Below are positions 886-64,000 of a stretch of DNA of 64,000 nucleotides, in pieces. Position numbers and translations under genes: made by a program. The notes beneath the pieces were generated by a model. That model worked only from the letters and a program-made list of their open reading frames with translations, was not told where the DNA came from and made no database searches. Source of the DNA: Somniosus microcephalus (lineage: Eukaryota); the NCBI GenBank assembly GCA_052327205.1, contig CM126224.1:25606001-25670000 (forward strand), given 5' to 3'. Position 1 is the stretch's first letter, and every line of letters starts with the position of its first letter.

Positions 886-1062
886 TGAAAATGTGGATGT
901 CTACTGCCTTCATATTGCTGAGGACGATGGAGAAGTCGATGGAGATTTTCCACCATTAGATTCCAATGAGCCTATTCACAAGTTCGGCTTCAGTACGCTG
1001 GCACTAGTTGAGAAGTACTCACCGCCTGGGCTGGCAACAAAACAGTCTCTCTTTGTTCGGAT
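886..1062 (+). CDS. MAPKAP1: MAPKAP1/SIN1 internal coding exon (177 nt, phase 2-2); end of CRIM and linker to RBD
   Basis: Acceptor ttcttcactgcag| and donor |gtaagt. Translates (N)[58 protein letters not shown](I), nearly identical to vertebrate SIN1 [44 protein letters not shown]. Confidence 0.97.
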
Positions 1063-16317: not shown

Positions 16318-16430
16318 TAATGCACCGCAGAGTGGATTCTCTCTCATTCAAGTTGACAGTATGAATGTCACCATGAAGGAGATTCTGCAGAAGGCTCTAA
16401 AAAGGAGAAAAGGTTCACAAAAGGCTGCAG
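16318..16430 (+). CDS. MAPKAP1: MAPKAP1/SIN1 internal coding exon (113 nt, phase 2-1); Ras-binding domain, first part
   Basis: Acceptor cctcttattgcag| and donor CAG|gtaaaa. In frame with the previous exon it reads (I)[37 protein letters not shown](G), matching SIN1 [38 protein letters not shown]. Not in the ORF track because it is too short. Confidence 0.96.
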
Positions 16431-17654
16431 GTAAAAATGAAAAGCCAAGAATTTTAAAGTGACTAAATTGAGTAATACACAATGTTGTGTTTTAATGGAC
16501 ATTGCTGTAATGTGACGAGTGACTCTTGCATCTGTGCTTTTATAATTGTATGGCATTTTTGGTACATTTGGTTCTTTAAACTTTGCATTGTTAAAACTAG
16601 CCTTCCCATTTTTAACATTTAGATTGCTTATAGGTTCAGAAAAACTGTTGTTCCCCAGGCTGCCTATATTTGTACATTTTCAGCTAATGCACTGATGCTG
16701 AAAAAAGGTGTAATATATTGATACAGAAATATCAGAGAAATTACCCTAAGCTACAAATCAAAATAGCTAAACCACAATTTTACATAAAAGTAAAAAATCA
16801 CATTGCCTGTGTTTGCCATTGTTGTTTCTCCCTCCTTAGTTATTCTTTACCCTTTTTTTAGTTTATTTTAATTTTATTCTATTCCAGCCATCTCTCCTAT
16901 TTCCACACATTGTTTTTTTTCCCCCATCTTCTGTGCTCCCAGCATCTATTTTCGAGCTGGGAGTAACTTATTTTTTTTTAAAAACACTACCACATGGTTG
17001 GTTAAAACCAAAGGCTGGTTAAATCAAATGACAAAGGCCTGAATGTTAACATCTGTGTCAAACAGGAACAGGCTTCCCAAGGATGAGTCTTCTCATTGAC
17101 AACTCGAGAAGGAAGAGTGCATCTGGATGAGTGAACTTTGTGGTTCGCTTCACTTTCTTTTTCCCATATTAAAAAGGCCTAAGATTCATTTTGTAAACAG
17201 ACCGTTAACAAAAATACACCAGCAAAGTTGCTGTGGATTTGGTGCAAGGGAATCGCCTTGTTGGACACAATTTCAAAACATTTGCTTCATTAAAATAGAT
17301 GTATCTGGAGCTTTGTGGGGGTAACATAAAAACACATTTCTAAGAGAACTAATTTTGGGAGGCAACTTAATATTATTTATCCTTCTAGGCGGAGAAAGTA
17401 CTGATTCTTTATACTTATCCGTAGCTTTAAGATCTCTCAAGACTTGACCTTATTTCCCTTTGACATTTTTATATGTTTGATTTTTTTTTGGTCCAACTTT
17501 CTCCCTTCCACATCTTTCACCTTTGGATACTACTCTTGTTAGGGTATGGTTCACAGGAGCTGGAGCTGTACTTTGGCCAAATGGTCATCCATTATACAGC
17601 TGTGCGAGTGAACGATGAATGTCGGCAAGCCAGTCAATCATGAGGCATCACAGC

Positions 17655-18777: not shown

Positions 18778-19129
18778 TACAGGAAACTTCGTGATATCCG
18801 GCACCGACGGGACCAGCGTGATGCCGATCTATGAAAACTTCTGGACAGACCAGCGCTAATGTTGAAGGATACGGAGGTTTTCATCTCCGTATCTGACAAC
18901 AAACACTGTTGCTTAGCAACAGCTTGTAAACAGTCGGCCCGTACCTTGGAAGCGTCTCTGTAGCTTAGCAACAGCTTCAGAGAGGCTTTCCAGAGACTGA
19001 CTGTTTAAAAAAAAAAAAAAAAAAAAATGCTAGGAGAAGAAAAAAAAACTAACAAAATGGCTGCTGATTTCTGCCGTTAGATCGAGGTTTCCGGACATAC
19101 AACCTCCGGATAAACCAAAGTTTCCTGTA
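18778..19129 (+). mobile_element. Tc1/mariner-pogo(Tigger)-type MITE, copy 1 (TA TSD included)
   Basis: TA|CAGGAAACTT ... AAGTTTCCTG|TA inverted termini, subterminal TCCGG motifs, about 350 bp; homologous to 35062 and 60674. Confidence 0.92.
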
Positions 19130-22400: not shown

Positions 22401-24821
22401 AACTGAGTGAGTAACCTATGTACACCATACACATGAATGAAAATGCTACATCTTACTGACTGATGACCTGTCATAGGCTAAAAATCAGTGCGTTTAATTG
22501 ACCTGCGTTGAGTATTCTCCGTGATTTGAAAGTTTACTTTTTCTCTTTGGTGTGTACCATTAGTACTCAAGAATATTTCAGCCCATTGTCGGGGACCTGT
22601 GCCCACACTAATAAAACTGCACTGATCCTCTGGTTAAATAATGTTCATGTGTGCAATTTTTATTACCCATTATGCAGGTGACTTTTTTTTGGTTTCTTGA
22701 TAACTTCTGTGTTTTGAGAGCACTGATTTAATTGCTTGTCAATCCCTAGCATCAAAAAGCAGGATTTCTAAGAGCTGCTCTTGTAAAGCAACCTATGAAA
22801 TTGTTGGGTACCTTTTGTTAGCTAAGTGACCTTCCTTAAGTTGACACTGTAAAATTCTCATCTGTTTACTAGTTTCATGACTAGCGACACTGAACTTTCT
22901 GCAAAGTTTTACGTGTTGGAGCAAAATTTTGTAGAAATAATTACTAACTTTGGGCTACTGGAAATTAATTAACATGGTTTTTTTTAGGAAATGGTAATGG
23001 CATTTGTCGTAGTTTATGACCGACTCTTTCAGACTGCACTGTTCAAATTCTGTTTTTAATTGTTAGCCACCAGATTATGGATTTGGCCATCAAAAATTAC
23101 TTAGCTGACCAAAGTTTGGAGCTACTGAAACGGGAAAAATATTTAGACTGGAAATCGGGCAAACTCAAGTTCTTAACCTTCAACGGTAATTTTGGAAGCG
23201 GTTACATAAGTGTGCTGGCATAGAAAGCATTGCATTAATTGTGTATATAAAGTTGCAGAAAATACACAACATAATCACAGTGTGGAGGTATTAAAAATGT
23301 TACAATCCTTCAGCTATACATTTATGAAAAACAGGTGTCTTGGTAAAATGTTACACTATCTTCAGCATGCAAGTAGCTGACAAATCTTTTTCCTTTTAGT
23401 GCTAGATGAAGTGTCATTGCTCAAGAATACTTGGTCCATTATCTTTTGCCTTCAACAATTGATGTGAACTACACTAGATAGAAGTCGAAGATAACTGATC
23501 AAAATGTCCTGAAGTAATCACATCTCAACAGTGAAGCAGAGCAAAACTTTGAAATTGTGGGGAATCCGGAGTGTACAAGTAGACTCCCTCACGTCATTAT
23601 ATGTAGATATACTGAATTATAAGGTTTAAAAAGAGGCTTTTCTAACAAAACCTGCTCTTGGGGTTATTTCTATATAAATATTGGTGCAAAACATTATCGG
23701 GTGTGGTAAATTGTTCTTGAAGATTCTTTGCACAAAAAATCACCTGCATTTTAATGGCAACATTATTAATCACGTATATATTTTTTAATGTTTACATCCA
23801 TAGTTACAATTAATTAAATCATTGAGAGCTTTCCACCATTTTTAATTTGCAGCTCACTGGGATGGATCAGGGTTGGGTGGGTTAATCTTTATGGCACAGA
23901 TCCTTCAAGCAGTGGAGCCTTGAAGGACGAGCAGTTGCCTCACTGAAAGAGTGAAGCATAATTGACGTGGTGATGGCAGAACAGAGGATTCCCACAAGTG
24001 CGTTCATTTCCTAGCATTGCTGCTGACGTGTTTGATCCATTTGTGTTTTTTGGATACCCACTGTGGATTCCCTGTAACTTTGCTGTTTCAAGCGGTGAAT
24101 GGCTTGCCATCAGAGGAGCCCCTAAATACATTTTGATTTGTACATCAAAATAAAAATTGACCTGCACAACAAATCCAAACTCGAAATATATCTGATGTCA
24201 TCACTTCATGCACAGAATGTTTATTCCTACCAGTACTGTCTCCCTTAAAACAAAAAAAGTTATGCATATTTTTCATATAAAAGTTAAAGGTTTTAATATA
24301 TATTAGTACACATTTTCATGAGTTATTTGCCAACTATTGAATGATATATATTTTTTACGTTTTACTACATTACAGGTGCTATATAAATACAAGTTGTTGT
24401 TAAATAGGAACGTTACTCTTTGGGGTAGTGGTCAATAGCAATTAAGGCAAAAGTTTCCTGAAAATACTTTCTGCAAAGCCTCTCCATCTCCTAAATGTTT
24501 CTTTTGCTTAGCTGTACAAATGAATGTGAATGTATCCATATACTGGATAAACTCTCTGAAGGTGGAGTAGACTTTATGAATGCTATCTACCATGGTCCCT
24601 TAGGAATAATAGAAGAAAGAGTATGTTCCGAGTGTGTCCATTTACTGTGGGCCATGCCCTGTAATCTTTGCTCTGAGGATGCAGTTTGTATGGGGATAGT
24701 GGGAGGGCACCATTGTAGAAAAACGTATTTCTGTTAACTCTCAATTAGACTATAAACCTGAGAACTTAATTAAACCTTTCTGTGTTATCTCCGAATTGTA
24801 CTAGATTAGATGAGATGATTT

Positions 24822-25110
24822 TAACTCTGGCCTCTTGAGCATCCCTGATTTTAATCGCTCCACCATTGATGACCGTGCCTTCAGCTGCCGAGACCCCAAG
24901 CTCTGGAATTCCCTCCCTAAACTTCTGCCTCTCTACCTCTCTCCTCCATTAAGTTGCTCCTTAAAACCTACCTCTGACCAAACTTTTGGTCATCTGCCCA
25001 TATTTCTCCTTGTGTGGCTCTGTCAAATGTTTGTTTGATAATCGCTCCTGTGAAGCGCCTTGGGACATTTTACTATGTTAAAGGCGCTATATAAATACAA
25101 GTTGTTGTTG
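24822..25110 (+). mobile_element. L2 3' end
   Basis: ctctggcctcttgagcatccctgattttaatcgctcc...ggcgctatataaatacaagttgttgttg. Confidence 0.88.
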
Positions 25111-26099
25111 AGATCATTTTAAAACACTGAGCTTAAACTATATGCATCGTGCTTAGTTATATTTCTGGGCTTTCGTTATCATTTTATTACCCCCGAATTA
25201 ATATTTTGTATTTTTTTTAATATACCCTAGGTCTGAAGGAAAGGACAAAGAAAGGATCTGTAACTAGCATTGCTATATACGGCAGTTTTATCAACAACAA
25301 CAGCTTCACCAGGGAAAGCAGTAGGGGGTTAATGGAAGTACTGTATCATTGTAGGTTACATGTCTAGTGCCAGAACTTTGGGGGGGGAAGTTTAAATAAA
25401 AAGTGAACAATGCTACCTGATTCCAATGATCTCTTTTCTACAGCACAAGATAAATGTGCAAAGGAAGCAGTTACGGCAGATATTTAATTAGAAGCAGTCA
25501 CGTTGGATAAATCCAAAGAGGCTTGTCTCAGTGGACATGTTCAGGTTTTTGGTTGATAGCTTTCCTGGCAGTCACGGGTGGAAAATGGTTTACTACTTAA
25601 ACAGAAGTGCTGTCCTTAACTACATAGTGGTGAGGAGTGTAGTGTATGATGGAAGGCGACTAATGTGACCCACAGTCGTGGATGAAGAATGCAAATATTG
25701 ATGAACCATTTTCTCTTTCTACATAAAAAGAAATGTTTGTATATAAATAAAATGAGACAAATCATATGTTTTACCAAAACATTATAAAAACATAATGGTT
25801 TGATCTTGTGGTGCAGTAAAATCATCTTGCATCATATTATTTAGAGTGTTTGCTTCAAATATTGCTAGAACAGAACATCTTAATAGTTGGCAAATAGCTC
25901 ATGAGAGTGTGTATTTAATATATATAGTATAGATATATATAGATAAACCTTTAACTTTTATATATAAAAAAAATATGCATAACTTTTTCTGTCGATTCTT
26001 GCTCCACACATCATTGTGGCCAAGGTGGTGGTCAATCAACCGGGCCCTATGCATTTGCTAGTGGTACTTTATAGGTAGCTGTTTGGAGGTGTACAGTTG

Positions 26100-26701
26100 T
26101 GGCCTAGGAAAACTAACACTGATGGGCGCATACGTGGTGTGTACGTGCCCGTAAGGGCCGCGCAAGTTCCGGGTTTAGGCATGCGAAGCTTCTTGACAAA
26201 TCATCCGCATCCCCGGGGAGAGTGGGGCAACTTCTGCCCAGCGAATGCCCGTGAAATTCTTACGGCTGGTAAAAGCAGGCATAAGGCCTGCTTTTACCAG
26301 CATAAGAGTTTGATGGTTTATTTTTATGTTTTTTTAATCATTTATACATTAAAAAACCTGTACAATAAGTTAAGTTTATTTTTAGCCCCTTTTAAATTTA
26401 TTTTTCAAAACAATAAATTTTAGTTTAAAATATTTAATTAAATGGCATTTTAAATACGTAACTTTTTATTTATTTGATGTGTAGATGTATTTTTTGGGTA
26501 TCCCCATTCATTCGTTGGGCTGGCCCATATGATCCCAGGGACGCTTCCAAACCACATGCGCCCCGGGATACGTGGGCCTCTGCCCACGGGTACCCAGAGA
26601 GGCCCAGGCCCGCGAATCTCCAGAACACCAGGTACGTGGGCATTTTATTTGTGAATCCGAGGCATTTCCCCCCGGGAAGCCTCCACCGCAAATTCAGGGC
26701 C
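26100..26701. mobile_element. GGGCC-TIR MITE, inverted paralogue of 46268-46994
   Basis: GC/CpG-rich ends and an AT-rich core. The right end gcaaattcagggcc and internal motifs (gtgtgtacg, ggcatgcgaagc, ctggtaaaagcag, gggcctctgccc) align to the reverse complement of 46268-46994. Confidence 0.8.
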
Positions 26702-27394
26702 TTTCTTTTTTCCCCTCCCCACCCTCCTCCAAAAGTATAATGTAGAAGGACAAAATGATCAGTATAGAGAAAAAAAGTATTGCAGAAAATAATTTAACCA
26801 GTAATAAGGGACATACTGGTATAATGCCAAGGAAGTAGAGCACAATTTGGAGCAATAACAGATGTCTGCTAATTATTTTAGGTATCCTTTGTAAGTGTTG
26901 GTCCGAGAGATAAGGCTTGATGTGCACCCAGATGGCTGGACGCACATCAATTGAGCATGACTGGGGGAGTTATGGGATTGCACACACCACAGTGAGAAAA
27001 TCTGCTTGCCTGTGATGATCTCTGCTGTCCATTAATACCTAAAATCAGTGATTTTTCACCAGTAGATTTTGTTTCCCCCAGTTCCCCAGCATTCATGAAA
27101 ACATTGTCATGCTGAATTTTTTGCATGGTGTTAATATAGTCAAACTATTCTCCACAATAATATTTCTCAATATATTTTGTTACCTTTTTAAAGGATCAAA
27201 AAAAAACTTTACTTGTGTTTCTATAGACTTTTTCACCAAGCAGGTGTTCAGGGATAGCTTTTTTTGCGGAGGTTTAAATGCTTATTTTGACTGTTAATTT
27301 CAGTTTTGTATTAATTGTGTAATACAGTAATACTAAATATCTCAAATTTCAATGAGTTTTCATTTTCTTCTGTTCCAAGCACAATGTTATAGAT

Positions 27395-29650
27395 GAGGAA
27401 GGCCACTCAGCCCATGTAGGGCAGCGAGGACAGGGAGTATTGACGATTGGGACTTGGGGTGGGATAGAATGCAGACAGCAGAGCTTAGGATGAGCTGAAT
27501 TTTGGAGGATGGGAGGCCATTCGGGAGAGCATTGGAACAGTCACGTCTGGAGGTGACAAAAGGCATGTCTGAAGGATTCAGTAGCAGATGGGCTGAGGTA
27601 AGGACAAAGGCAGGTGATGTTAAAGAGGTGGAAATAGGCATCAGTACTGTTTCTCCACCCCCCCCCCTGATTATCAAAATCCACGACAAGGCCTTGGACA
27701 ACGTGGACCAATTTCCATACCTCCGGAGCCTGCTGTCAACAAGGGCAGACGTCGACGACGAAGTCCAACACCGCCTTCAGTGTGCCAGTGCAGCCTTCGG
27801 TCGCCTGAGGAAGAGAGTGTTTGAAGACCAGGACCTCAAACCCGGCACTAAGCTCATGGTCTAGAGAGCAGCAGTGATACCCGCCCTGCTGTATGCCTCG
27901 GAGACATGGACCATGTACAGCAGGCACCTCAAAGCACTGGAGAGGTGCCACCAACGCTGCCGCCACAAGATCCTGCAAATCCATTGGCAGGATAGGCGCA
28001 CCAACGTCCGTGTTCTTGCTCAGGCCAACATCCCCAGCATCGAAGCTTTGACCACGCTCGATCAGCTCCGATGGACGGGTCACATTGTCCGCATGCCCGA
28101 TACGAGACTCCCAAAACAAGCGCTCTACTCTGAGCTCCGGCATGGCAAGAGAGCCCTAGGTGGGCAGAGGAAATGCTTCAAGGACACCGTCAAAGCCTCC
28201 TTGGAAAAAGTGTAACATCCCCATCAACACCTGGGAATCCCTGGCCCAAGACCACACAAAGTGGAGGAGAAGCATCCGGGAAGGCGCCGAACAACTCTAG
28301 TTTCTTCGCCGGGAGCAAGCGCAGGCAGCGCAAGGAGCGCACGTCAACCCAAGCACCCCACCCACCCGCCCTTTCAACCACCGTCTGTCCCATCTGTGAC
28401 AGAGACTGTAGGTCCCGCAATGGACTCATCAGTCACCTGCGAACTCATATTTTTAATGTGGAAGCAAGTCATCCTCTGTTCCGAGGGACTGCCTAAGAAG
28501 TAAGAAGGAAATAGGCAGTCTTTTGTGATGTAAAGAAAATGGTGTTGGAAGCTCAGCTTGGGTTCAAATAGAATGCCAAGTTGTGAGCAACCTGAGACAA
28601 TGGTAAGAGCGGGGATTCGAGTCAGTGTTGAAGCTACAGTGGCTTTGTCTTCCCAGTGTCTAGCTGGAGGAAGTTGCAGTTCCTTCCTCTAAGACTGGAT
28701 GTTGGAGACGCAGTCTGACATCAAAGAAGCAGTGGAGGGGTCAAAAGGGGGAGTGGAAAGGTAGAGCTGGGTGTCATCCGCGTACATGTGAAGGCTGACC
28801 CTATGTATGCGGATGATGTCACCAACGGGCAGTATGTAGATGAGGAAGAGCACGGGGCTAAGGATGGATCCTTGGAGGACTCCAAAGTGGGTGGCGCAGA
28901 GGTGGGAAGAGAAGCCATTGTTAAAGATGTCCTGGCTATAATCGCATAGGTAAAAGTGGAAATAAATGAGCCAAACCCCTCCTCGTCTTCCTGCATGTCC
29001 TCTCCTAAAATCATGTCATCTATGAGATCGGCAGGAGGTGGTGGAATGGGATGAGGTGCTCCAAGTTTGAGAAGTTGCTAGAGGAGATGGGGATAGACCA
29101 AAGTATAACTTGGTGAGAATTATGCCGCTACTGTGGTGGTTTGGGTGGGTAAGGTGGTGGAAAATATATCCAGGTTGAGAGGCTTCAATATGAGGCAAGA
29201 TGTCGCCACCTATGAACTAAGTTTCAGTCAAAGCCAGGCTGTCAATGCAACCGTCCACAGTTAGGTCATGGATAGCAAGAACCTTGTTTTTGGGTGAATA
29301 GAAGGCAGAGGAGTATTGTGGGTTGGGGTAGGGATGGGGACAAAGTAACTGGGGAGAAATTAAGAGACATGGCTAGGTGACAGGACAGGGAAGGAAACAA
29401 GATCAAAAGCATGGGGGAGAAAGAAGTAAAGGGCGTAGGTCTGGAATAGCAGCCAAAATGAACATGCAAATACAGCTTAAGGATCCTGTCCGGCAACGAG
29501 TGATGGAGGAGTTCTGAAAGATGTGGAGCAGAGTCAGTGGCCACAAGAGACCCATCAATGCTCCTTATTAGAAATTTTCTGCCGGCCTTATTACTTAGAG
29601 TAGTAGTAGTAAAAATTGATAAAGTTATGTACTTCAGGTGGTGACACTGA
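27395..29650 (-). mobile_element. Fragmented L2 (ORF2 C-terminus, RT and APE pieces) interrupted by an RTE insertion
   Basis: Minus frames give FVTSRRDCSNALPNGLPSSKIQLI..., an RT-region piece at 28700-28950, and APE-like IDSLALTET...EASQPGYIFHHL at 29100-29260. Confidence 0.75.
27641..28506 (+). mobile_element. RTE-clade (BovB-like) LINE, 5'-truncated, with 11-bp TSD
   Basis: LDNVDQFPYLRSLLS...ASAAFGRLRKRVF...IPALLYASETWT...QLRWTGHIVRMPDTRLPKQALYSEL...CPICDRDCRSRNGLISHLRTH; (AAG)-type tail; ggaaataggca duplicated at 27630-27640 and 28507-28517; in-frame TAG at 27862. Confidence 0.93.
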
Positions 29651-30053
29651 TTTATTCCTGGCAGGACTCGAACTGGCACTGTCCCAGTTTAGCAACGCCC
29701 CACTCTCAAAATAAATGGGATGGTGATGCAAGTGATCCAGTACCCAGGGGTGAATGTTTTCACATTTTTGGCAGGTTTCAATGATTTGCTCCTCTTGAAG
29801 TGAGATACCCTACAGGCTAACATTTCTAAAAGAAAAAGTGGAAGTATGCACTATTCAGTTACTAAAGTTCACTGCTGCACTTTTTTTCAGTATAGACTAG
29901 TGACGTCTACTTGTACAATATTCCCAGCACAGAGTGGGCCTACAGTTATCATGAAGCTTTTACATTTAAATATACATTTTAAGCTTAGAACTGTTTTGTT
30001 CCTTACTACTTGCCACGTTAATCTGTGACTGCAATCTCAAACCAACCTTGAAA

Positions 30054-35061: not shown

Positions 35062-35392
35062 TACAGGAAACTTTGTGCTATCCGGGACCGAGCTGCTGCC
35101 GTTCCCTCAAAACTGCCGGACACTCCAGAGCTAATGTTGAAACATACGGAGATTTTCATCTCCGTATGAATCAACAAACCCTGTTGCTTAGCAACAGCCT
35201 CTAAACAGTCGGCAAGCGTCTCTGTAGCGTCTCTAGCTGAAGCTGTTGCTTAGCTACAGACGTTGCAGAGCTTGACTGTTCAAAAAAAAAGCTAAGAAAA
35301 GAAACGAAAAGAATAAAAAACAGCTCCTGATTTTTGCCGGTGGCTCGAGCTTGCCGGACGGTTCGCCTCCGGATAACACACAGTTTCCTGTA
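35062..35392 (+). mobile_element. Tc1/mariner-pogo-type MITE, copy 2
   Basis: TA|CAGGAAACT ... AGTTTCCTG|TA; colinear with 18778-19129. Confidence 0.92.
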
Positions 35393-41796: not shown

Positions 41797-41904
41797 GGCA
41801 TCAGTATCGGCTTGAGAGGCAAAATGAACCTAACGTAGCTGTAGATTTAGATCGTACCTTAGAGAGTCAGAGCACTTTGGAATTCTGTCTGGTCAGAGAG
41901 TACA
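41797..41904 (+). CDS. MAPKAP1: MAPKAP1/SIN1 internal coding exon (108 nt, phase 1-1); RBD, second part
   Basis: Acceptor ctttttttcgttccag| and donor |gtaagt. Reads (G)[35 protein letters not shown](S), matching SIN1 [36 protein letters not shown]. Confidence 0.96.
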
Positions 41905-43881: not shown

Positions 43882-45795
43882 AGTACTGGAGAAATTAATG
43901 GGACTAAAAGCCGGTAAATCCCCTGGACCTGATAGCCTACATCCTAGGGTTTTGAAAGAGTTGGCTATAGAGATAGTGGATGCATTGGTTGTCATTTTCC
44001 CAAATTCCATAGATTCTAGAATGGTTCCCGCAGATTGGAAGGTAGCAAATGTAACCCCATTAATTAAGAAAGGAGGGGGAGAGAAAACAGGGAACCACAG
44101 ACCAGTTAGCCTGACGACAGTACAGGAAACTCTCGTTTAAACGACACCTAATTATCTGGAATTCTCTAATAACCGACAAAATTCAGGAGTAGGTTTTGAG
44201 GCTTCTGTATACTGTATAATTGCGGCTGTGTAACCGGGGATCTCGTACCTTTTGCCGTGTAACCATGGCTTCTGCACCTCTGGTTGTGTAACCGGGTCCC
44301 CTGTACCTGTGTTACGGGGCTCCAGCACTTCTGGCTGTGCTACGGGGCTCTTGTATCTTGGGCCATTGTCACTCCATGTCCCTTCTTCCTTATCCGGAAT
44401 TTTTAATCAACCGGCACCATCCCGGTCCCATCGGTGCCGGATACCAAAGTGTTTCCTGTAGTAGGGAAAATGCTAAAATCTATTATTAAGGACGAAAATA
44501 ATAATAGGATTGGGCAGAGTCACCACGGATTTATGAAAGGGAAATCGTGTTTGACAAATCTATTGGACTTTTTTGAGGTTGTAACTAACAGAATAGATAA
44601 GGGGGAACCAGTGGATGTGATGTATTTGGATTTTCAGAAGGCATTTGATAAGGTGCCACACAAGAGGTTATTAAACAAAATTAGGGCTCGTGGGATTGGG
44701 GGTAATATACTAGCATGGATTGAGGATTGGTTAACGGACAGAAAACAAGAGAGTAGGAATAAACGGGTCATTTTCAGGTTGGCAGGCTGTAACTGGTAGG
44801 GTACCGCGAGGATCAGTGCTGGGGCCTCAGCTATTCACAATCTATATCAATGATTTGGATGAGGGGACCAAATGTAATATATCCAGGTTTGCTGATGATA
44901 CAAAGCTGGGTGGGGATGTAAGTTGTGAGGAGGATGCAAGGAGGCTTCAAGGGGATATAGACAGGCTAAATGATTGGGCAAGAATATGGCAAATTGAATA
45001 TAATGTGGAGAAATGTGAAGTTATCCACTTTGGTAAGAAAAAAGAAAAGCAGAGTATTTTTTTAAATGGTGAGAGATTGGGAAATGTTGGTGTTCAGAGG
45101 GACCTGGGTGGTGTCATACACGAATCACAAAGTTAAATGCAAGCAATTAGGAAAGCAAATGGTATGTTGGCCTTTATTACAAGAGGATTTGAGTATAAGA
45201 GTAAAGACGTCTTACTGCAATTATATAGGGCCCTGGTGAGACCGCACCTGGAGTATTGTGTATAGTTTTGGTCTCCTTACCTAAGGAAGGATATACTTGC
45301 CATAGAGGGAGTGCAACGAAGGTTCACCAGACTGGTTCCTGGGATGGAGAGATTGTCCTGTGAGGAGAGATTGAGTAGATTAGGCCTATATTCTCTAGAA
45401 TTTAGAAGAATGCGAGATGATCTCATTGAAACATACAAAATTCTTACAGGGATTGACAGTGTAGATGCAGGGAGGATGTTTCCCCTGGCTGGGGAGTCTA
45501 GAACCAGGGGTCACAGTCTCGGAATAAGGGGTCGGCATTTAGGACTGATGAGGAGAAATTTCTTCACTCAGAGGGTGGTGAATCTTTGGAATTCTCTACC
45601 CCCGAGGGCTGTGGAGGCTCAGTCGTTGAGTATATTCAAGATAGAGATCGATAGATTTTTGGATATTAAGGGAATCGAGGGATATGGGGATAGTGCAGGA
45701 AAGTGGAGATGAGGAAGAAGATCAGCCATGATCTTATTGAATGGCGGAGGAGGCTCGAAGGGCCAAATGGCCTTCTCCTATTTCTTATGTTCTTA
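43757..45795 (+). mobile_element. CR1 LINE (HER1-like), 5'-truncated ORF2/RT, defective, with nested MITE
   Basis: KSPGPDSLHPRVLKELA...DWKVANVTPL; HGFMKGKSCLTNLLDFF...YLDFQKAFDKVPH; LGPQLFTIYINDLD...FADDTKLGG; tail cctatttcttatgttctta; frameshifts present. Confidence 0.96.
44121..44460 (-). mobile_element. Tc1/mariner-pogo-type MITE, related family, inserted in CR1
   Basis: TA|CAGGAAAC ... GTTTCCTG|TA. The reverse complement of the right end (tacaggaaacactttggtatccggcaccgatgggacc) matches the left ends of copies 1 and 3. The empty site cagtagtggggaaaatgct is present in the CR1 paralogue near 52647. Confidence 0.92.
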
Positions 45796-46267: not shown

Positions 46268-46994
46268 GGGCCGGATTTTCCGATCAGAGGCTTCCTGCGT
46301 GCGGATGCCTCCGATCGGGAAAAATCTACGCACTTAGCTGCTGGCTCCGTAGATCCCGAGACTAGCGATCCTGGGCCTCTCCGGGTCCGCGCGGGCAGAG
46401 GCCCAGGTATCCCAGGGGCGCGTGCAATTCGTAAGCGACCCTGGGACCACATGGGCCATGGGGAGCCAATCAAAGATGGGAATCCCCTTTCATACTTTTG
46501 ACAGGCCTCTACGCATAGATCTGTCAAGTATGAATGGGAATCACTTAAACACAGTTACACATTAAGTAAATATTTTTAAGTCATATTTAAAATTAGTTAA
46601 AATTACATTAAATCAAATATTTTAAACATTTAATTTTTTGAGAAAAATAAGTTTTTTACGGGGCTAAAAATAAACTTTTTTAAAAGGTATTTTTAAATTA
46701 TAAGTGAGTTGGGGGGGGGGGGGAATATTTAATTTTTTTTTAAACTCTTATGCTGCTTTTACCAGGTGTAAGATTTTTTAAGGTTTTCAACGGGCGGAGG
46801 TTGTACAGAAAGCAGAACTCTGCCCGCGGAGGCCCTTCTCCTGGGCAGGCGTGCAATCTCAAGAGAATTCTTGACAGATCGGAAGTGCCGGGTTTTAGTG
46901 TATGTGCTTCGCATGCCTGAAAGCGGCACTTGCGAAGCTCATGCGGGTGCGTACACACCTCGTACGCACCCGTGGGGATTGGAATATCCGGCCC
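46268..46994. mobile_element. GGGCC-TIR MITE with 3-bp AAT TSD
   Basis: aat|gggccggattttcc ... ggaatatccggccc|aat. Confidence 0.88.
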
Positions 46995-51654: not shown

Positions 51655-53905
51655 ATGTGATACTAGAATCAGGCCATCTTAGACTGGGTATTATGTAATG
51701 AGAAAGGATTAATTAGCAATCTTGTTGTGCGCGGCCCCTTGGGGCGGAGCGATCATATGATGATAGAATTCTTTATGAAGATGGAGAGTGAAGTATTTGA
51801 CTCGGAGACTAGGGTCCTGAATTTAAATAAAGGAAACTATGATGGTATGTGGCGCAAGTTGGCTAGGATGGATTGGGGAACGTTACTTAAAGGGTTGACG
51901 GTGGATAGGCAATGGCAAACATTTTAAAGATCGCATGGATGAACTACAGAATTTGTTCATCCCTCTTTGGCATAAAAATAAAACAAAAAAGGTGACTCAA
52001 CCATGGCTAACAAGGGAAATTAGGGATAGCATAAGATCCAAGGAGAGGACATATACACTGGCCAGAAAAAGCAGCAAACCTGAGGATTGGGAGCAGTTTA
52101 GGATTCACAAAGGAGGACAAAGGGATTAATTAGAGAGGGAAAATAGAGTATGAGAGTAAGCTTGCAGGGAACATAAAAACTGACTGCAAAAGCTTCTATA
52201 GATATGTGAAGAGAAAAAGATTGGTGAAGTAAAGCGTAGGCCCCTTGCAGTCAGAATCAGGGGAATTTATAATGGAGAACAAAGAAATGGCAGACCAATA
52301 AAATACATACTTTGGTTCTGTCTTCACAAAGGAGGACACATATAACCTCCCAGAGATGTCGGGGAACATAGGGTCTAATGAGAGAAGGAACTGAATGAAA
52401 TCAGTATTTGTAGGGAAATGGTGTTAGGGAAATTGACGGATTGAAGGCCGATAAATCCCCAGGGCCTGATAATCTATATCCTAGGGTACTTAAGGAAGTG
52501 GCCCTAGAAATAGTAGATGCATTGCTGGTCATCTTCCAAAATTCTATAGACTCTGGAACAGTTCCCATGGATTGGAGGGTAGCTCATGTAACCCCACTAT
52601 TTAGAAAAAGGTGGTAGAGAAAAAATGGGGAATTATAGCCTGACATCAGTAGTGGGGAAAATGCTAGAGTCTATTATAAAAGATGCAATAGCAGAGCACT
52701 TGACTAATCTACTGGAATTTTTTGAGGATGTAACTGGTAGAATAGATAAGGGAGAACCAGTGGGTGCGGTGTATTTGGACTTTCAGAAGGCTTTCGATAA
52801 GGTCCCGCATAAGAGATTAGCGTGTAAAGTTAAAGCACATGGGATTTGGGGGTAAGGTACTGACTTGGATAGAGAACTGGTTGGCAGACAGGAAGCAAAG
52901 AGTTGGAATAAACGGGTCTTTTTCCGAGTGGCAGGCAGTGTGAGGTACCGCAGGGATCTTTGCTAGGACCCCAGCTATTCACAATATATATTAATGATCT
53001 AGACGAGGGAACTAGATGTAATATCTCCAAGTTTGCAGACGACACAAAGCTGGGTGGGCGTGTGTGCTGTGAGGAGGATGCCGAGAAACTCCAGGATGAT
53101 TTGGACAGGTTGGGTGATTGGGCAGAAGCATGGCAGATGCATTATAATGTGGATAAATGCGAGGTTATCCACTTTGGTGGCAAAAACAGGAAGGCAGATT
53201 ATTATCTGAACGGCAATAGATTGGGAGAAGGGGAAGTGCAACGAGACCTGGGTGTCCTTGTGCACTAGTTGCTAAAGGTAAGCATGCAGGTGCAGCAGGC
53301 GGTTAAGAAGGCAAATGGTATGTTGGCCTTCATAGCGAGAGGATTCGAGTACAGGAGCAAAGATGTCTTGCTGCAGTTGTACAGGGCCTTGGTGAGGCCA
53401 CACCTTGAGTATTGTGTGCAGTTTTGGACGCCTTATCTGAGGAAGGATGTTCTTGCCATGGAGGGAGTGCAGCAAAGATTCACCAGACTGATACCTGGGA
53501 TGGCAGGAGTGACATATGAGGAGAGATTGGGTCGATTGGGCTTACATTCGCTGGAGTTTAGAAGAATGAGAGGGGATCTCATTGAAACTTATAAAATTCT
53601 AACAGGACTAGACAGACTAGATGCAGGAAGGATGTTCCTGATGGTGGGGGAGTCCAGAACCAGGGGTCACAGGCTAAAGATAAGGGGTAAGCCATTTAGG
53701 ACAGAGATGAGGAGGAATTTCTTCACCGAGAGTGGTGAACCTGTGGAATTCTCTACCACAAAAGGCAGTTGAAGGCTAAAGGGATATGGGGAGAAAGCAG
53801 GGACAGGGTACTGAATTTGGATGATCAGCCATGATCACATTGAATGGCGGAGCAGGATCGAGGGGCCGAATGGCCTACTCCTGCTCCTATCTTCTATGTT
53901 TCTAT
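51655..53905 (+). mobile_element. CR1 LINE, 5'-truncated (APE end through RT), defective
   Basis: PLGRSDHMMIEF (APE end), PWLTREIRDSI, YLDFQKAFDKVPH, FADDTKLGG, LYRALVRPHLEYCVQFW; tail ctatcttctatgtttctat; several stops and deletions. Confidence 0.96.
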
Positions 53906-56502: not shown

Positions 56503-59398
56503 TGTTACACTGTCCTGTCTGACTCTTCCTCCGTCAGGAGTGCAGCATGGATCCCATTGTATAGATGCAAACTGCACTCTCCTCTCCATGTATAAGAAGA
56601 GATCAGTTGTAAAATTAGACAGTTGTTTGTGTTCCACAGGGCATGTACCTTGTATGGCTTTCAACAATAATAACTTACATTGATCTAGCGCTTTAACGTA
56701 GGAAAACGGCCCAAGGCCCTTCGCAGCAGCGTAATGAGCAAAAATTAATGGAATGATTCTCCACATGCCAAGTTCCAATCGGCCCAATTGGAAATGATTA
56801 GTTGTAGATGAAATGTTTTTTGTGGTGGTTTTTTGCTACCATATTATCACATTATGAATATCTTTTAGGAGGTGGATAAGGGAAGAACACCCCTTCATGT
56901 GAAAGGATAGTTGCTTGGGTGACATCATGATACCATAAGTGTCCCTCAGGGTTACTTGTGATTCTCTCTGATGGCATGGTGATTTTAGAAGGTATTTCTA
57001 TTAAGAGTGAAAGCCTTGAGCTATGAAATCCTTTGTTTTATATTCAGAAATTTGTACAAATGAATCCAAAAAACAAGTTGATGGATGGGGAAGAGCAGCT
57101 TATTTTACATCCAATTGTTTTACGAAGAAAACTAGCAAATAAAATAATCTTTTGATATCATTATCCAATTGTCCCTAATTGTTACATACATTCTTAATCC
57201 CAAATTGTAGAACGTATAATTTTGTAATGCTGTTTCCTGAAACCGTTGATTGAACCTTGAGGTCCCTGGGAGACGAGCTGGCAATCTTCCACTAATAACA
57301 ATTGCAGAAAAATGTGACTCTAGTAAATCCCCAGTGTGTATTTGAGAAGATGGCTGATGGTTGCATGCACTACCCTTGATTACCAAACCATCACTGAAAG
57401 ATTCTGTGATAAACGCAGCATTTACTCAAGTTATGTTAGAGGCTCTAATACTACCCACTCTTGCCGAATCGATAGTGTTACAGTGCACCTGTATTTACAA
57501 ACATTAATCTTGCCTGGGCACTGAGTCTGGCTGCTAAGCTGCAGTTGACACATCACATTTCTATCTTGTTTGCCCCCACCCCCATTCTCCAATACAAGGG
57601 TTTTCTACAGAAAATACACCTGAAAGCTTAAATAGTTCTATATGTTTGTAGTCTACGGAGGTTACATTTTGAGTGCTGTGCATCCTATTGGCATGATGCC
57701 TTGTAAGCTAAAAACCTTGTACTAAGAGTTTGGCAAATAGTATGTATTACAAGCTTCCTTAAAAGGTTTATTAACAAGAAGTTATGATTTTAAATTTGCT
57801 ATATATGCTTTTATCCTTCGGTTCTATAGAGTTCCTAATACTAGTTGCAAGCAAATCATCTAGTTTTAAAGGCATGTGATACTGCTTCAGACATAATGAT
57901 GTAATAATGGTCAAGAAATTCCCTGTTTTCCAACATTTTCTGTGCTAGGAATACATGTTCCAAACTGAGAAGCACTTATTGTGGAACAATTACTGTCCTG
58001 CTTCAATGCTTAAAGATTAGGTTGTGTAGACTTTGCAATTCTTCAGTAAACTTACTGAAATACACCCTACCAGCTCTGTCTGTGACATCTTGATTTATGA
58101 AGGGTTTAACATACCAGTTTAATGTAGATCTTTTAAACCTTTGAAATCATGATTGTATTAATGGAGATGATGTGTGATTGTCATACAGGAAGCTGTGTAC
58201 TAAGTTCAACACGCATTTAGTTGCTGTTATGGATTTTTTTTTATACTTGAGGGTGATTTTCTCTGTGATGTTCAGCACAGGTGTTAACATTTACATTCTT
58301 TGCCTGATGTAGTGTAGCATGTGCTTGATTTCATTTCAGAGTGAAAAATAGATGAAATGCCAGGGATTCAAATAATGTATAATTCACAGCAAGTGACAGC
58401 AGGCTTTTAATACTGGCTCTAGCCGACAGCCTAGCGCCAGGAAATGTCACACTTGGAGTGAAAGCGACTTGCTTCCTGTTATGTAGGCTTTCTTGATGAC
58501 TAAGTGATCGATTACCTATGACTTTTTTTTTTCTTTTGGGAAAACCATATGCAAAATTGTGTTTTTAAGCCGTTTCATTTGTTAAACACAACGGACAGTG
58601 TTAATATATAAATATATAAAGTGTGCTTGAAATATCATTCACATCACCTGACTGCACAAAGTGCTTGTCAAACTGAAAGAACCAGCACTAATTCACTGAG
58701 CTAGTGGATGAGTTAAAGATTTTAAAATGCAAAATGAATAAGGGTATACGTTGTGTTGAGACATTTTATTTACTAGTCACCTTTACCAGTATTCCTTAAT
58801 GCCCCATTTCCACTAGGCTGTGAAATTTTCTTACATTAGGTCCTCATAAGAACATCTGTCTAAAGAGCAATGGCAGCAAATCTAAGATGAGTGCTGATCA
58901 GAGAGACTTAAACTACTGGGATTAAGGAAAGCATTGTAGAAAACGTAGAAAGACAAAGCGTAGTGATAGTTGAGGAAGACTGGAACGATGAAGACAATAA
59001 AAGAAAGAGAAAATATCAGATGACAAAAGAAACCAGGGAAGATCTCTGGGTAGCCCAGTGGGTGTTCCTTGCACCTTTGGACATGGATTCAAATCCAACC
59101 CAGCCCAGGGTGTGAACATTCTAAGGGAATGAGGAAACTTGAAAGGAGTTTGGACAGTATCTCCACAATGTGGGATCACAGCAGAAAATGGCCCCTAATT
59201 AGCACCAATAGAATGTCTCACTCAGAGAGGCTGCAAGGATAGCTGATGTGAAAAATGAAGAGCAAGTTTCCACTGGTGCAAAAACAGCTGTCTGTATGAG
59301 ATTGTAGCCATGGTGTGGAGATGCCGATGTTGGACTGGGGTGGACAAATGTAAGAAGTCACACAACACCAGGTTATAGTCCAACAGTTTTATTTGAAA

Positions 59399-59435
59399 TC
59401 ACAAGCTTTCGGAGCGCTGCTCCTTCGTCAGGTGA
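59399..59435 (-). ncRNA. Minimal type I hammerhead ribozyme (antisense copy)
   Basis: Reverse complement tcac-CTGACGA-a-ggagc(agc)gctcc-GAAA-gctt-gtga. Confidence 0.8.
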
Positions 59436-59833
59436 AGTGGAGAGATGCATAAAGACACAGCTTATATAGTCAGAGAATAATGCCAGATGATTACAGGTAA
59501 TCTTTCTAACTGCCATTTATCATACCTCGGCAGAGAGATAATCACAGCGATCAAAGGTGTGAATGGTGTCCAAACAGGTTAGTCAGGAAAACATTATATC
59601 AAAGAACAATGAGGTGGGGTCACAAGGGGTCAAATGTTGCAGATGCTGGGGTCTGTATGAAAAACTTTGATGTAATGTTTTCCTGACTAACCTGTTTGGA
59701 CACCATTCACACCATTGATTGCTGTGACTATCTCTCTGCTGAGGTGTGATAAATGGCAGTTAGAAAGATTACCTGTAATCATCTGGCATTATTCTCTGAC
59801 TATATAAGCCGTGTCTTTATGCATCTCTCCACT

Positions 59834-59870
59834 TCACCTGACGAAGGAGCAGCACTCCGAAAGCTTGTGA
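59834..59870 (+). ncRNA. Minimal type I hammerhead ribozyme (sense to MAPKAP1)
   Basis: tcac-CTGACGA-a-ggag(cagca)ctcc-GAAA-gctt-gtga: stem I tcac/gtga, stem II and palindromic stem III AAGCTT. Confidence 0.8.
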
Positions 59871-60229
59871 TTTCAAATAAAACTGTTGGACTATAACCTG
59901 GTGTTGTGTGACTACTTACATGTATGAGATTGGGTTGAAGACACGTCGTTGCCACAGTACAGAGTCCCTTACTCCGCAGCTGACTGCTGTACCTGACCTG
60001 CACATGCTTGATTGATGCTGACACTGGAAATATTCCATTCTTCAAATGTTCACAATCTTCACTTCAAGAGCAAAATTCTGCAAGTTCCTTTTTTTTACAA
60101 TAAAAATGAATTTGACATTCTGATGGCTCAGAGATGACATCTTTGTTGTCTGACCTGTACCGACCAGGAAGGTCCCAGGTTTCATCCCCGATCAGTACTT
60201 CGCTGGGCCAGTAATAGAAAAGAGAGAAC

Positions 60230-60673: not shown

Positions 60674-61006
60674 TACAGGAAACTTTGATATCCGGCACCG
60701 ACGGGACCGAGCTGTTGCCGTCCCATCAAAACTGCCGGACAAACCAGCGCTAATGTTGAAACATACGGAGCTTTTGAGCTCCGTATCTGGCAACAAACCC
60801 TGTTGCTTAGCTTCTAAACAGTCGGCCGTACCTTGCAAAGCGTCTCTGTAGCTTAGCAACAGCTTCAGCGAGACCTTGCAGAGCCTGACTGGTGGGGGAA
60901 AAAAAGCAACGAAAAGAAAAAAAACCTAACGAAACGGCTCCTGATTTTTGCCGGTGGATCGAGCATTCCGGACAGTTAACCTCCGGATAAACCAAAGTTT
61001 CCTGTA
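60674..61006 (+). mobile_element. Tc1/mariner-pogo-type MITE, copy 3
   Basis: TA|CAGGAAACTTTG ... CAAAGTTTCCTG|TA; colinear with copies 1 and 2. Confidence 0.92.
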
Positions 61007-62837: not shown

Positions 62838-64000
62838 TTTTTTTTTTTTATTCGTTCATGGGATGTGGGCGTCACTGAGAAGGCCAGCATTTATTGCCCA
62901 TCCCTAGTTGCCCTCGAAGGTGGTGGTGAGCCGCCTTCAACCCCTGCAGTCCGTGTGGTGAAGGTACTCCCACAGTGCTGTTAGGGAGGGAGTTCCAGGA
63001 TTTTAACCCAGCGACTATGAAGGATCGGCGATATAATTCCAAGTCAGGGTGGTGTGTGACTTGCAGGGGAACTTGGAGGTGGTGGTGTTCCCATGCGCCT
63101 GTTGCCCTTGTCCTTTTAGGTGGTAGAGGCCGTGGGTTTAGGAGGTGCTGCCGAAGAAGCCTTGGCGAGTTGCTGCAGTGCATTTTGTAGAGGGTACACA
63201 CTGCGGCCATGGTACACCGGTGGTGGAGGGAGTGAATGTTTAAGGTGGTGGATGGGGTGCCAATCAAGCGGGCTGCTTTGTCTTGGATGGTGTCGAGCTT
63301 CTTGAGTGTTGTTGGAGCTGCACTCATCCAGACAAGTGGAGAGTATTCCATCACACTCCTGACTTGTGCCTTGTAAATGGTGGAAAGGCTTTGAGGAGTC
63401 GAGGTGAGACACTCGCCGCAGAATACCCAGCATTTGACCTGCTCTTGTTGCCACAGTATTTATGTGGCTGGTCCCATTAAGTTTCTGGTCAATGGTGACC
63501 TCCCAGGATATTGATGGTGGAGGATTCGGCGATGGTAATGCCGTTGAATGTCAAGGAGCGGTGGTTAGACACTCGCTTGTTGCTGATGGTCTTTGCCCGG
63601 CACTTGTGTGGCACGAATGTTACCTGCCACTTATCAGCCCAAACCTGAATGTTGTCCAGGACTTGCTGCATGTGGGCATGGACTGCTTCATTATCTGAGG
63701 AGTTGCAAATGGCACTGAACACTGTGCAGTCATCAGCGAACATCTTCATTTCTGACCTTCTGATAGAGGGCAGGTCATTGATGAAGCAGCTGAAGATGGT
63801 TGGCCCTGAGGAACTCCTGCAGCGATGTCCTGGGGTTGAGATGATTGACCTCCAACCACCACAACCATCTTCCTTTGTGCTAGGTATGACTCCAGCCAGT
63901 GGAGCGTTTTCCCCCTGATTCCCATTGACTTCAGTTTTACTAGGGCTCCTTGATGCCGCACTCGGTCAAATGCTGCCTTGATGTCAAAGGCAGTCACTCT
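62838..64000 (-). mobile_element. CR1-clade LINE (distinct subfamily, poly(A) tail), running off the window end
   Basis: Minus ORFs AFDIKAAFDRVRHQGALVKLKSMGIRGKTLHWLESYL...GVPQG, MFADDCTVF and MEYSPLVWMSAAPTTLKKLDTIQDKAARLI; T-run at 62838-62849 preceded on the minus strand by aataaa. Confidence 0.93.

Follow-up and report, generated by a model that had tools for sequence, protein, structure and literature searches.

The window analysed here, the whole 64,000-nucleotide stretch of Somniosus microcephalus contig CM126224.1, carries exons and introns of MAPKAP1, which lies on the plus strand. A Pfam scan of 31 of the 48 long open frames in the window returned no host exon; a splice-site scan revealed the host exons, and three of four plus-strand candidates were matched to the Pfam domains CRIM and RBD_SIN1. 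Three copies of a MITE, all intronic, and one sister MITE are arranged around these exons as follows.

887..1060, plus strand: host exon, SIN1 CRIM domain (MAPKAP1), from the splice-site scan and Pfam
16319..16456, plus strand: host exon, SIN1 Ras-binding domain, from the splice-site scan and Pfam
18778..19129, plus strand: MITE copy 1, subfamily A/S19, bounded by TA duplications (18778-18779, 19128-19129)
18780..18850, plus strand: copy 1 left terminal repeat and subterminal CCGG-type motifs, common to the autonomous element
18860..18901, unstranded: copy 1 inverted repeat H1, core 18868-18893, outer TGTTG/CAACA
18906..18922, unstranded: copy 1 H2, a 17-bp palindrome whose positions 18908-18920 fit the restricted RFX X-box consensus
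18927..19007, unstranded: copy 1 inverted repeat H3, from folding and the subfamily consensuses
18960..18972, plus strand: copy 1 second, imperfect X-box in the H3 loop, with one perfect RGYAAC half, in an invertible cassette
19007..19057, plus strand: copy 1 A-rich tract of variable length
19060..19127, plus strand: copy 1 right subterminal motifs and terminal repeat, from comparison with the ends of the autonomous element
35062..35392, plus strand: MITE copy 2, subfamily B/S1, with H2 whole at 35181-35197
35232..35260, minus strand: copy 2 second-box cassette, inverted, from inverted-repeat comparison and a box scan
41799..41903, plus strand: host exon, SIN1 Ras-binding domain, from the splice-site scan and Pfam
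44121..44460, minus strand: sister MITE whose ends are those of copies 1-3 and whose tandem-unit interior lacks the palindromic box; it lies on the strand opposite to these copies
60674..61006, plus strand: MITE copy 3, subfamily C/S11
60799..60815, plus strand: copy 3 H2 remnant, 6 nt short, representing one of the many deletion alleles of H2

The terminal sequences of the three copies are CAGGAAAC/GTTTCCTG, flanked by TA duplications, and the left end of copy 1 (18780..18850) is oriented antisense relative to the transposase frame of the autonomous element. The original prediction placed the three copies, H1, H3 and the A-rich tract where they were found. Its description of the interior needs amendment: the H2 palindrome is whole in copies 1 and 2 but lacks 6 nt in copy 3, and the outer H1 pair flips from G-C to C-G between copies 1 and 2 but is a C.C mismatch in copy 3, as it is in 6 of the 13 subfamily consensuses. 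The inner H1 pair is indeed C-G in copy 3, although in only 4 of its 30 closest copies, the other 26 having an A.G mismatch. Compared with copies 1 and 3, copy 2 has its H3 loop the other way round. It is also true that all three copies are sense to MAPKAP1, but three of three is a weak pattern and the sister MITE is antisense. Elsewhere in the window there is a 257-bp inverted repeat (59348-59921, 96% complementary, 60-nt spacer) and an intronic plus-strand open frame with a weak C2H2 zinc-finger match (28134-28496), located in a stretch (about 24250-29700) that forms inverted repeats with 46358-46971 and is probably another DNA transposon. Two diverged copies of a long repeat (43901-45438 and 52438-53594, about 8.1 kb apart) and a minus-strand reverse-transcriptase fragment (63489-63965) are probably LINE remnants.

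Exact-pattern matches across the 6.45-Gb genome number at least 11,140 by one pattern and 7,682 by another. Each window copy retrieved a separate set of 93-98% identical copies (40 scored per search), so that copies 1, 2 and 3 belong to three different subfamilies and the changes that had been read as compensatory fall between masters. Clustering of 238 full copies gave 13 clusters with at least three members, a consensus set that excludes 20 copies from smaller clusters; non-CpG divergence is about 1-4% and CpG decay 2-10%, with all lineages similar in age. TA/TA flanks were present in 50 of the 52 H2-deleted copies with both ends found. The family is a young pogo/Tigger-type MITE, short, non-coding and of high copy number, with a TA duplication and terminal inverted repeats. 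Of 30 loci retrieved from the genome with Pfam DDE_1, 21 carry the two matching ends 2.3-2.8 kb apart; the one taken as partner (L123, 2.39 kb) has a 585-aa frame with CENP-B_N, HTH_Tnp_Tc5 and DDE_1 domains. Its catalytic spacing, counted by eye, is DD32D, within the DD29-36D given for Tigger, a range that pogoR overlaps (PMC7386202, available text). The ends of the hairpin-bearing MITEs are 68-78% identical to those of the partner over about 142 columns, with the outer repeat and the CCGG motifs kept, and the ends of tandem-type MITEs are 84-87% identical. The TA duplications, the genome copies and a transposase partner with matching ends bear out the proposal of a TA-inserting Tigger-type MITE, and sequence likeness makes it likely that the 2.39-kb element in the same genome moves these MITEs. 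A full X-box is absent from the non-coding ends of the three partner copies tested. Loci L121-L150 represent a young autonomous Tigger-type family in which several copies retain frames of 540-585 aa, and L097, L100 and L111 are simple internal-deletion derivatives of the autonomous element. The MITE family is probably a new one within a known superfamily, and may already bear a Dfam or Repbase name.

Two origins had been proposed for the hairpins: a structured RNA cargo (a captured ncRNA or pre-miRNA-like module with its fold under selection) or palindromes shaped at the DNA level. The three window interiors fold strongly (z -4.3 to -9.8 as DNA, 0 of 200 shuffles each), a point in favor of RNA, but they do so on both strands, and folding is similar on the two strands in all 13 subfamily consensuses. 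Among 14 representatives, the covariation score and the number of doubly changed cells both lie above every one of 500 shuffles, with kinship among the representatives uncontrolled. Against this, only 4 of 40 pairs are changed on both sides, where 3.3 are expected and that count is reached in 222 of 500 shuffles; the three pairs cited earlier do show double changes, yet are unpaired in 7, 3 and 4 of the 14 rows, and masters with stem mismatches spread too. A strand bias of G-U wobbles, which would have spoken for RNA, does not appear in H1 (four sites on the plus strand, three on the minus), and Rfam gives 0 matches at gathering score in the window and, on six loci with E up to 1, a single match at E 0.83.

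The second box in the H3 loop is inverted in 6 of the 13 consensuses, and among 100 copies it is forward in 62, inverted in 36 and absent in 2; the inversions have three or more breakpoints. In S20 an arm is made perfect by the inversion as well, a combination that is the signature of template switching. One group of 7 per 100 copies (L222, L233, L251, L263, L267, L271, L272) has the left H1 arm replaced, which makes H1 dispensable for spread. Private mutations fall at 89 of 11,578 stem positions, 34 of 4,465 unpaired and 173 of 20,523 end positions (p 1.0 and 0.52): individual copies decay neutrally, without stem constraint. An apparent shortage of stem substitutions (1.21% versus 2.05%) was a product of mixed subfamilies and is gone once private mutations only are counted. 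In two standard 101-nt RNA-seq runs the interior is covered on both strands, and the preference for one of them, about 2-fold in X21 and 4- to 7-fold in X22, is what an RNA cargo might produce, as could A-tract capture. At either end the reads continue out of the element into numerous distinct flanks, and the two runs have no start or end point in common within it. With both strands folding alike, an invertible loop, a dispensable H1, neutral stems and a blank Rfam result, the structured-RNA reading is already largely refuted and we regard it as highly improbable; the inversions between arms and the equal folding of the strands uphold instead the proposal of palindromes shaped at the DNA level.

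The one part of the interior that appears conserved among masters is H2. All 7 of its pairs are invariant across the 14 representatives, as against 75 of 188 variable terminal columns, although this invariance is inflated by subfamilies that were found with an H2-containing pattern; in 100 copies chosen without regard to H2, its sole shared variant is a T to C change at the centre base (4 of 100). H2 fits the restricted X-box consensus GYTRYY-N1-3-RRHRAC (PMC2375033, available text) on both strands in 13 of 14 consensuses, the fourteenth having been built mostly from H2-deleted copies, and is one base off per half from the mammalian consensus GTNRCC (PMC5752003, available text). The unpaired half-site of the H3 loop is retained in either orientation and, as described below, the box is multiplied in sister elements; an orientation-free half-site and a multiplied box are how a candidate double-stranded protein site would behave. 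The conserved core is an X-box-like site of the RFX type to which a host protein likely binds; RFX may be that protein, and its binding may help transposition. RFX2 drives germ-cell transcription in mouse, according to the accessible text of PMC4498915. Apart from the one built mostly from deleted copies, no consensus lacks the box although it is frequently hit, which suggests selection among masters for the box. Arm-to-arm correction of a palindrome can also preserve H2. The premise that MITEs need only their termini was too strong, as internal sequences tune the mobility of mPing and Stowaway Ost35 in the available part of PMC9921582.

A search by end pattern returned sister MITEs with tandem-unit interiors. 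One tandem type, also present at 44121-44460 of the window, has non-palindromic units, and in others the units end in a palindromic box; 12,270 exact tandem units in sister MITEs carry the H2 box without the hairpins, and the box is multiplied up to seven times within an element. One sister MITE (L401:190-830, minus strand) consists of seven 58-bp composite units, each an X-box-like unit plus a non-palindromic one. Three loci (L108, L252, L284) are intermediates in which H1, H2 and the second box are present and H3 is absent. In the tree of ends the hairpin group is supported at 100 and the order among tandem types is not separated, so the direction of the tandem-to-hairpin series is inferred; the hairpin group looks most derived, since its ends are less like those of the partner than the tandem types' ends are. 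The interior would have grown from a short-unit array like those of the sister MITEs, gaining palindromy stepwise, and its homology to a repeat array is an argument against a captured RNA gene. The units of the sister MITE at 44121-44460 (minus strand) share the sequence CCGGTTA with the subterminal motifs, and additional transposase sites may therefore be what the array started from.

H2 is also a hotspot for deletion. It is shortened in 48 of 100 copies in the lineage of copy 3 (copy 3 included), in 15 of 100 in the context of S3, S4, S7 and S13 (B-type copies there, 0 of 11), in 3 of 100 copy 1-type copies, two of the three being TG slips at the edge, and in 2 of 100 of the tandem type; 48 versus 3 of 100 gives p 2e-14. 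Each sample comprises the first 100 exact matches to its context pattern, all from contig C1, the patterns exclude longer deletion alleles, and the count of 48 was made by script and those of 15, 3 and 2 by eye. Within the lineage of copy 3, deletions occur in 48 of 89 copies with downstream CTTCT and 0 of 11 with CTTCA. The 23-bp context is nevertheless insufficient to set the rate, since the same flanks in another lineage are deleted in 1 of 6. For the allele set we used 54 deletions outside the top-match set of copy 3, dropping 16 from that set as query-biased; a figure of 15 of 18 from supposedly H2-unbiased rows was likewise set aside, as L251-L290 had been picked to be non-overlapping with an intact-H2 search and were deletion-enriched. 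The 54 deletions comprise 32 distinct alleles of 2-15 nt, and their junctions are blunt in 26, have 1 nt of microhomology in 16 (thus 0-1 nt in 42 of 54) and 2-4 nt in 8, and contain inserted bases in 4. A single break inside TTAGC fits 47-50 of the 54 without insertions, compared with 37 for a point two bases to the left and 39 for one four bases to the right. Two subfamily backgrounds share deletion alleles, and in such copies the second box is undamaged every time (38 of 38).

Several causes were considered and rejected. Hairpin strength does not account for the same palindrome being deleted in 48 versus 3 of 100 copies, nor for the low rate in tandem-type boxes. Pseudo-end cleavage by the transposase as sole cause fails because no end-like sequence separates hot from cold lineages: true ends score 29-39 and the site following the central TA about -31 to -36, with no difference at this site between hot S11g and cold S17, S9 and S10, and a minus-strand stretch resembling an end has a lower score in S11g than in cold S1 and S6. 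Excision footprints with added bases at H2 are absent from 100 copies, save for one TG duplication and one large insertion. Box substitutions, judged by eye, are no commoner in hot than in cold contexts, which argues against biased conversion driven by a recombination hotspot; in the single cartilaginous fish species that PMC5519329 treats in detail, PRDM9 is partial. Age is a weak explanation, CpG decay being 7.6% in 47 deleted copies versus 5.2% in the 19 compared (p 0.04), with non-CpG p 0.38 and no difference between deleted and intact copies in a second comparison. Large insertions beginning TG at or just before the left H2 edge, possibly LTR elements, were seen in L244 and L162. The deletions are likely to be scars of repeated, sequence-dependent breaks.

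Taken together, these observations are best explained, with a probability of roughly 0.6, by a partner-moved MITE with template-switched DNA inverted repeats, a conserved X-box-like core and repeated breaks at that core. Template switching and inversion likely reshaped the hairpins in a few master copies; masters whose box was intact would have spread better, most plausibly since RFX opens the element in germ cells; and the deletions would be end-joining scars of a break at TTAGC, at a rate set by flanks or lineage. A bolder version, to which we give only tentative credence, is that the MITE uses a borrowed host RFX site for its spread and that a sequence-specific germline cutter, either a host defence protein or the transposase acting at the central TA, breaks this site, with CRISPR-like scars as the result in about half of the 2,600+ copies of one lineage; lineages with single-base changes next to the box would have retained it and escaped cutting.

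Two further explanations compete with the partner-moved MITE broken at its X-box-like core. Neutral DNA symmetry would attribute all the palindromes to template switching, the X-box match to coincidence and the deletions to hairpin instability. Template switching is an established way for inverted repeats to become perfect and longer (PMC13100816; PMC7954356, available text), inversions and arm perfection are observed in the MITE consensuses, and X-boxes are themselves palindromes, so any GTTGC palindrome fits; this explanation is nonetheless rather unlikely, because the same 17-bp palindrome is deleted in 48 or in 3 of 100 copies depending on context, tandem-type boxes, many with a 9-bp perfect arm, are deleted in only 2 of 100, the unpaired H3-loop half-site is kept in either orientation, and sister elements repeat the box up to seven times. 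We consider it quite improbable, and more so than neutral symmetry, that the hotspot was created by assembly or sequencing errors at a hairpin in what is otherwise an ordinary MITE with X-box-like repeats. An artefact would not readily generate 32 alleles in near-identical contexts with about half of the copies intact, a rate tied to lineage or alleles with inserted bases, and base accuracy is otherwise high, with short homopolymers invariant and long transposase frames open. What speaks for it is that, relative to the intact copy, no H2 deletion allele reached a 1% share in the two raw RNA runs and no read or contig in these data spans a deleted junction with unique flank; the commonest allele would itself be expected near the 1% threshold. 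Contigs from two other organisms gave 0 matching records, a result of no evidential weight. The deletion alleles are known from the assembly alone, and the RNA-read result neither confirms nor excludes an artefact.

If the reading of a selected X-box-like core is true, a vertebrate MITE that multiplies a host transcription-factor site would be a passenger selected to use a germline regulator, and box-carrying MITEs would have scattered more than 20,000 such sites. A point-specific, context-dependent scar in thousands of natural copies would imply an unknown germline break, for which the sister subfamilies, one or two bases apart, are ready hot and cold substrates. A literature search, with most subscription journals and repeat libraries outside its coverage, found neither a box-multiplying MITE nor a deletion scar for this family.

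Among known systems, the partner resembles Tigger of the pogo superfamily in its TA duplication, short terminal repeats, CENP-B_N, HTH_Tnp_Tc5 and DDE_1 domains and DD32D spacing, and its 2.39 kb and 585 aa lie within the ranges given for Chondrichthyes Tigger elements; the elements described in the available text of those surveys are autonomous, and a MITE with this interior is absent there (PMC7386202, PMC9219625). Stowaway Ost35 and mPing of rice are like this MITE in having an interior that would tune non-autonomous mobility; their effect is measured and, in the accessible description, involves no shared motif, whereas the MITE here has a conserved host-factor motif known from sequence (PMC9921582). 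H2 resembles RFX X-boxes in matching the consensus on both strands with perfect RGYAAC halves (PMC2375033, PMC5752003, PMC4498915, available text) and differs in being 13 bp, compared with the 14-bp testis RFX motif, and in being a predicted site present in thousands of copies of a transposon. With template switching and quasi-palindrome correction, as outlined in PMC7954356 and PMC13100816, the MITE shares the inversion of a loop flanked by short inverted repeats and the perfection of arms. In the MITE the template-switch events were fixed in masters and then amplified, and its lineage-dependent deletions are left unexplained by template switching. Nuclease breaks repaired by end joining leave many small, mostly blunt deletions round one point, with few insertions; the H2 deletions differ from such scars in being natural, germline and spread over many dispersed copies.
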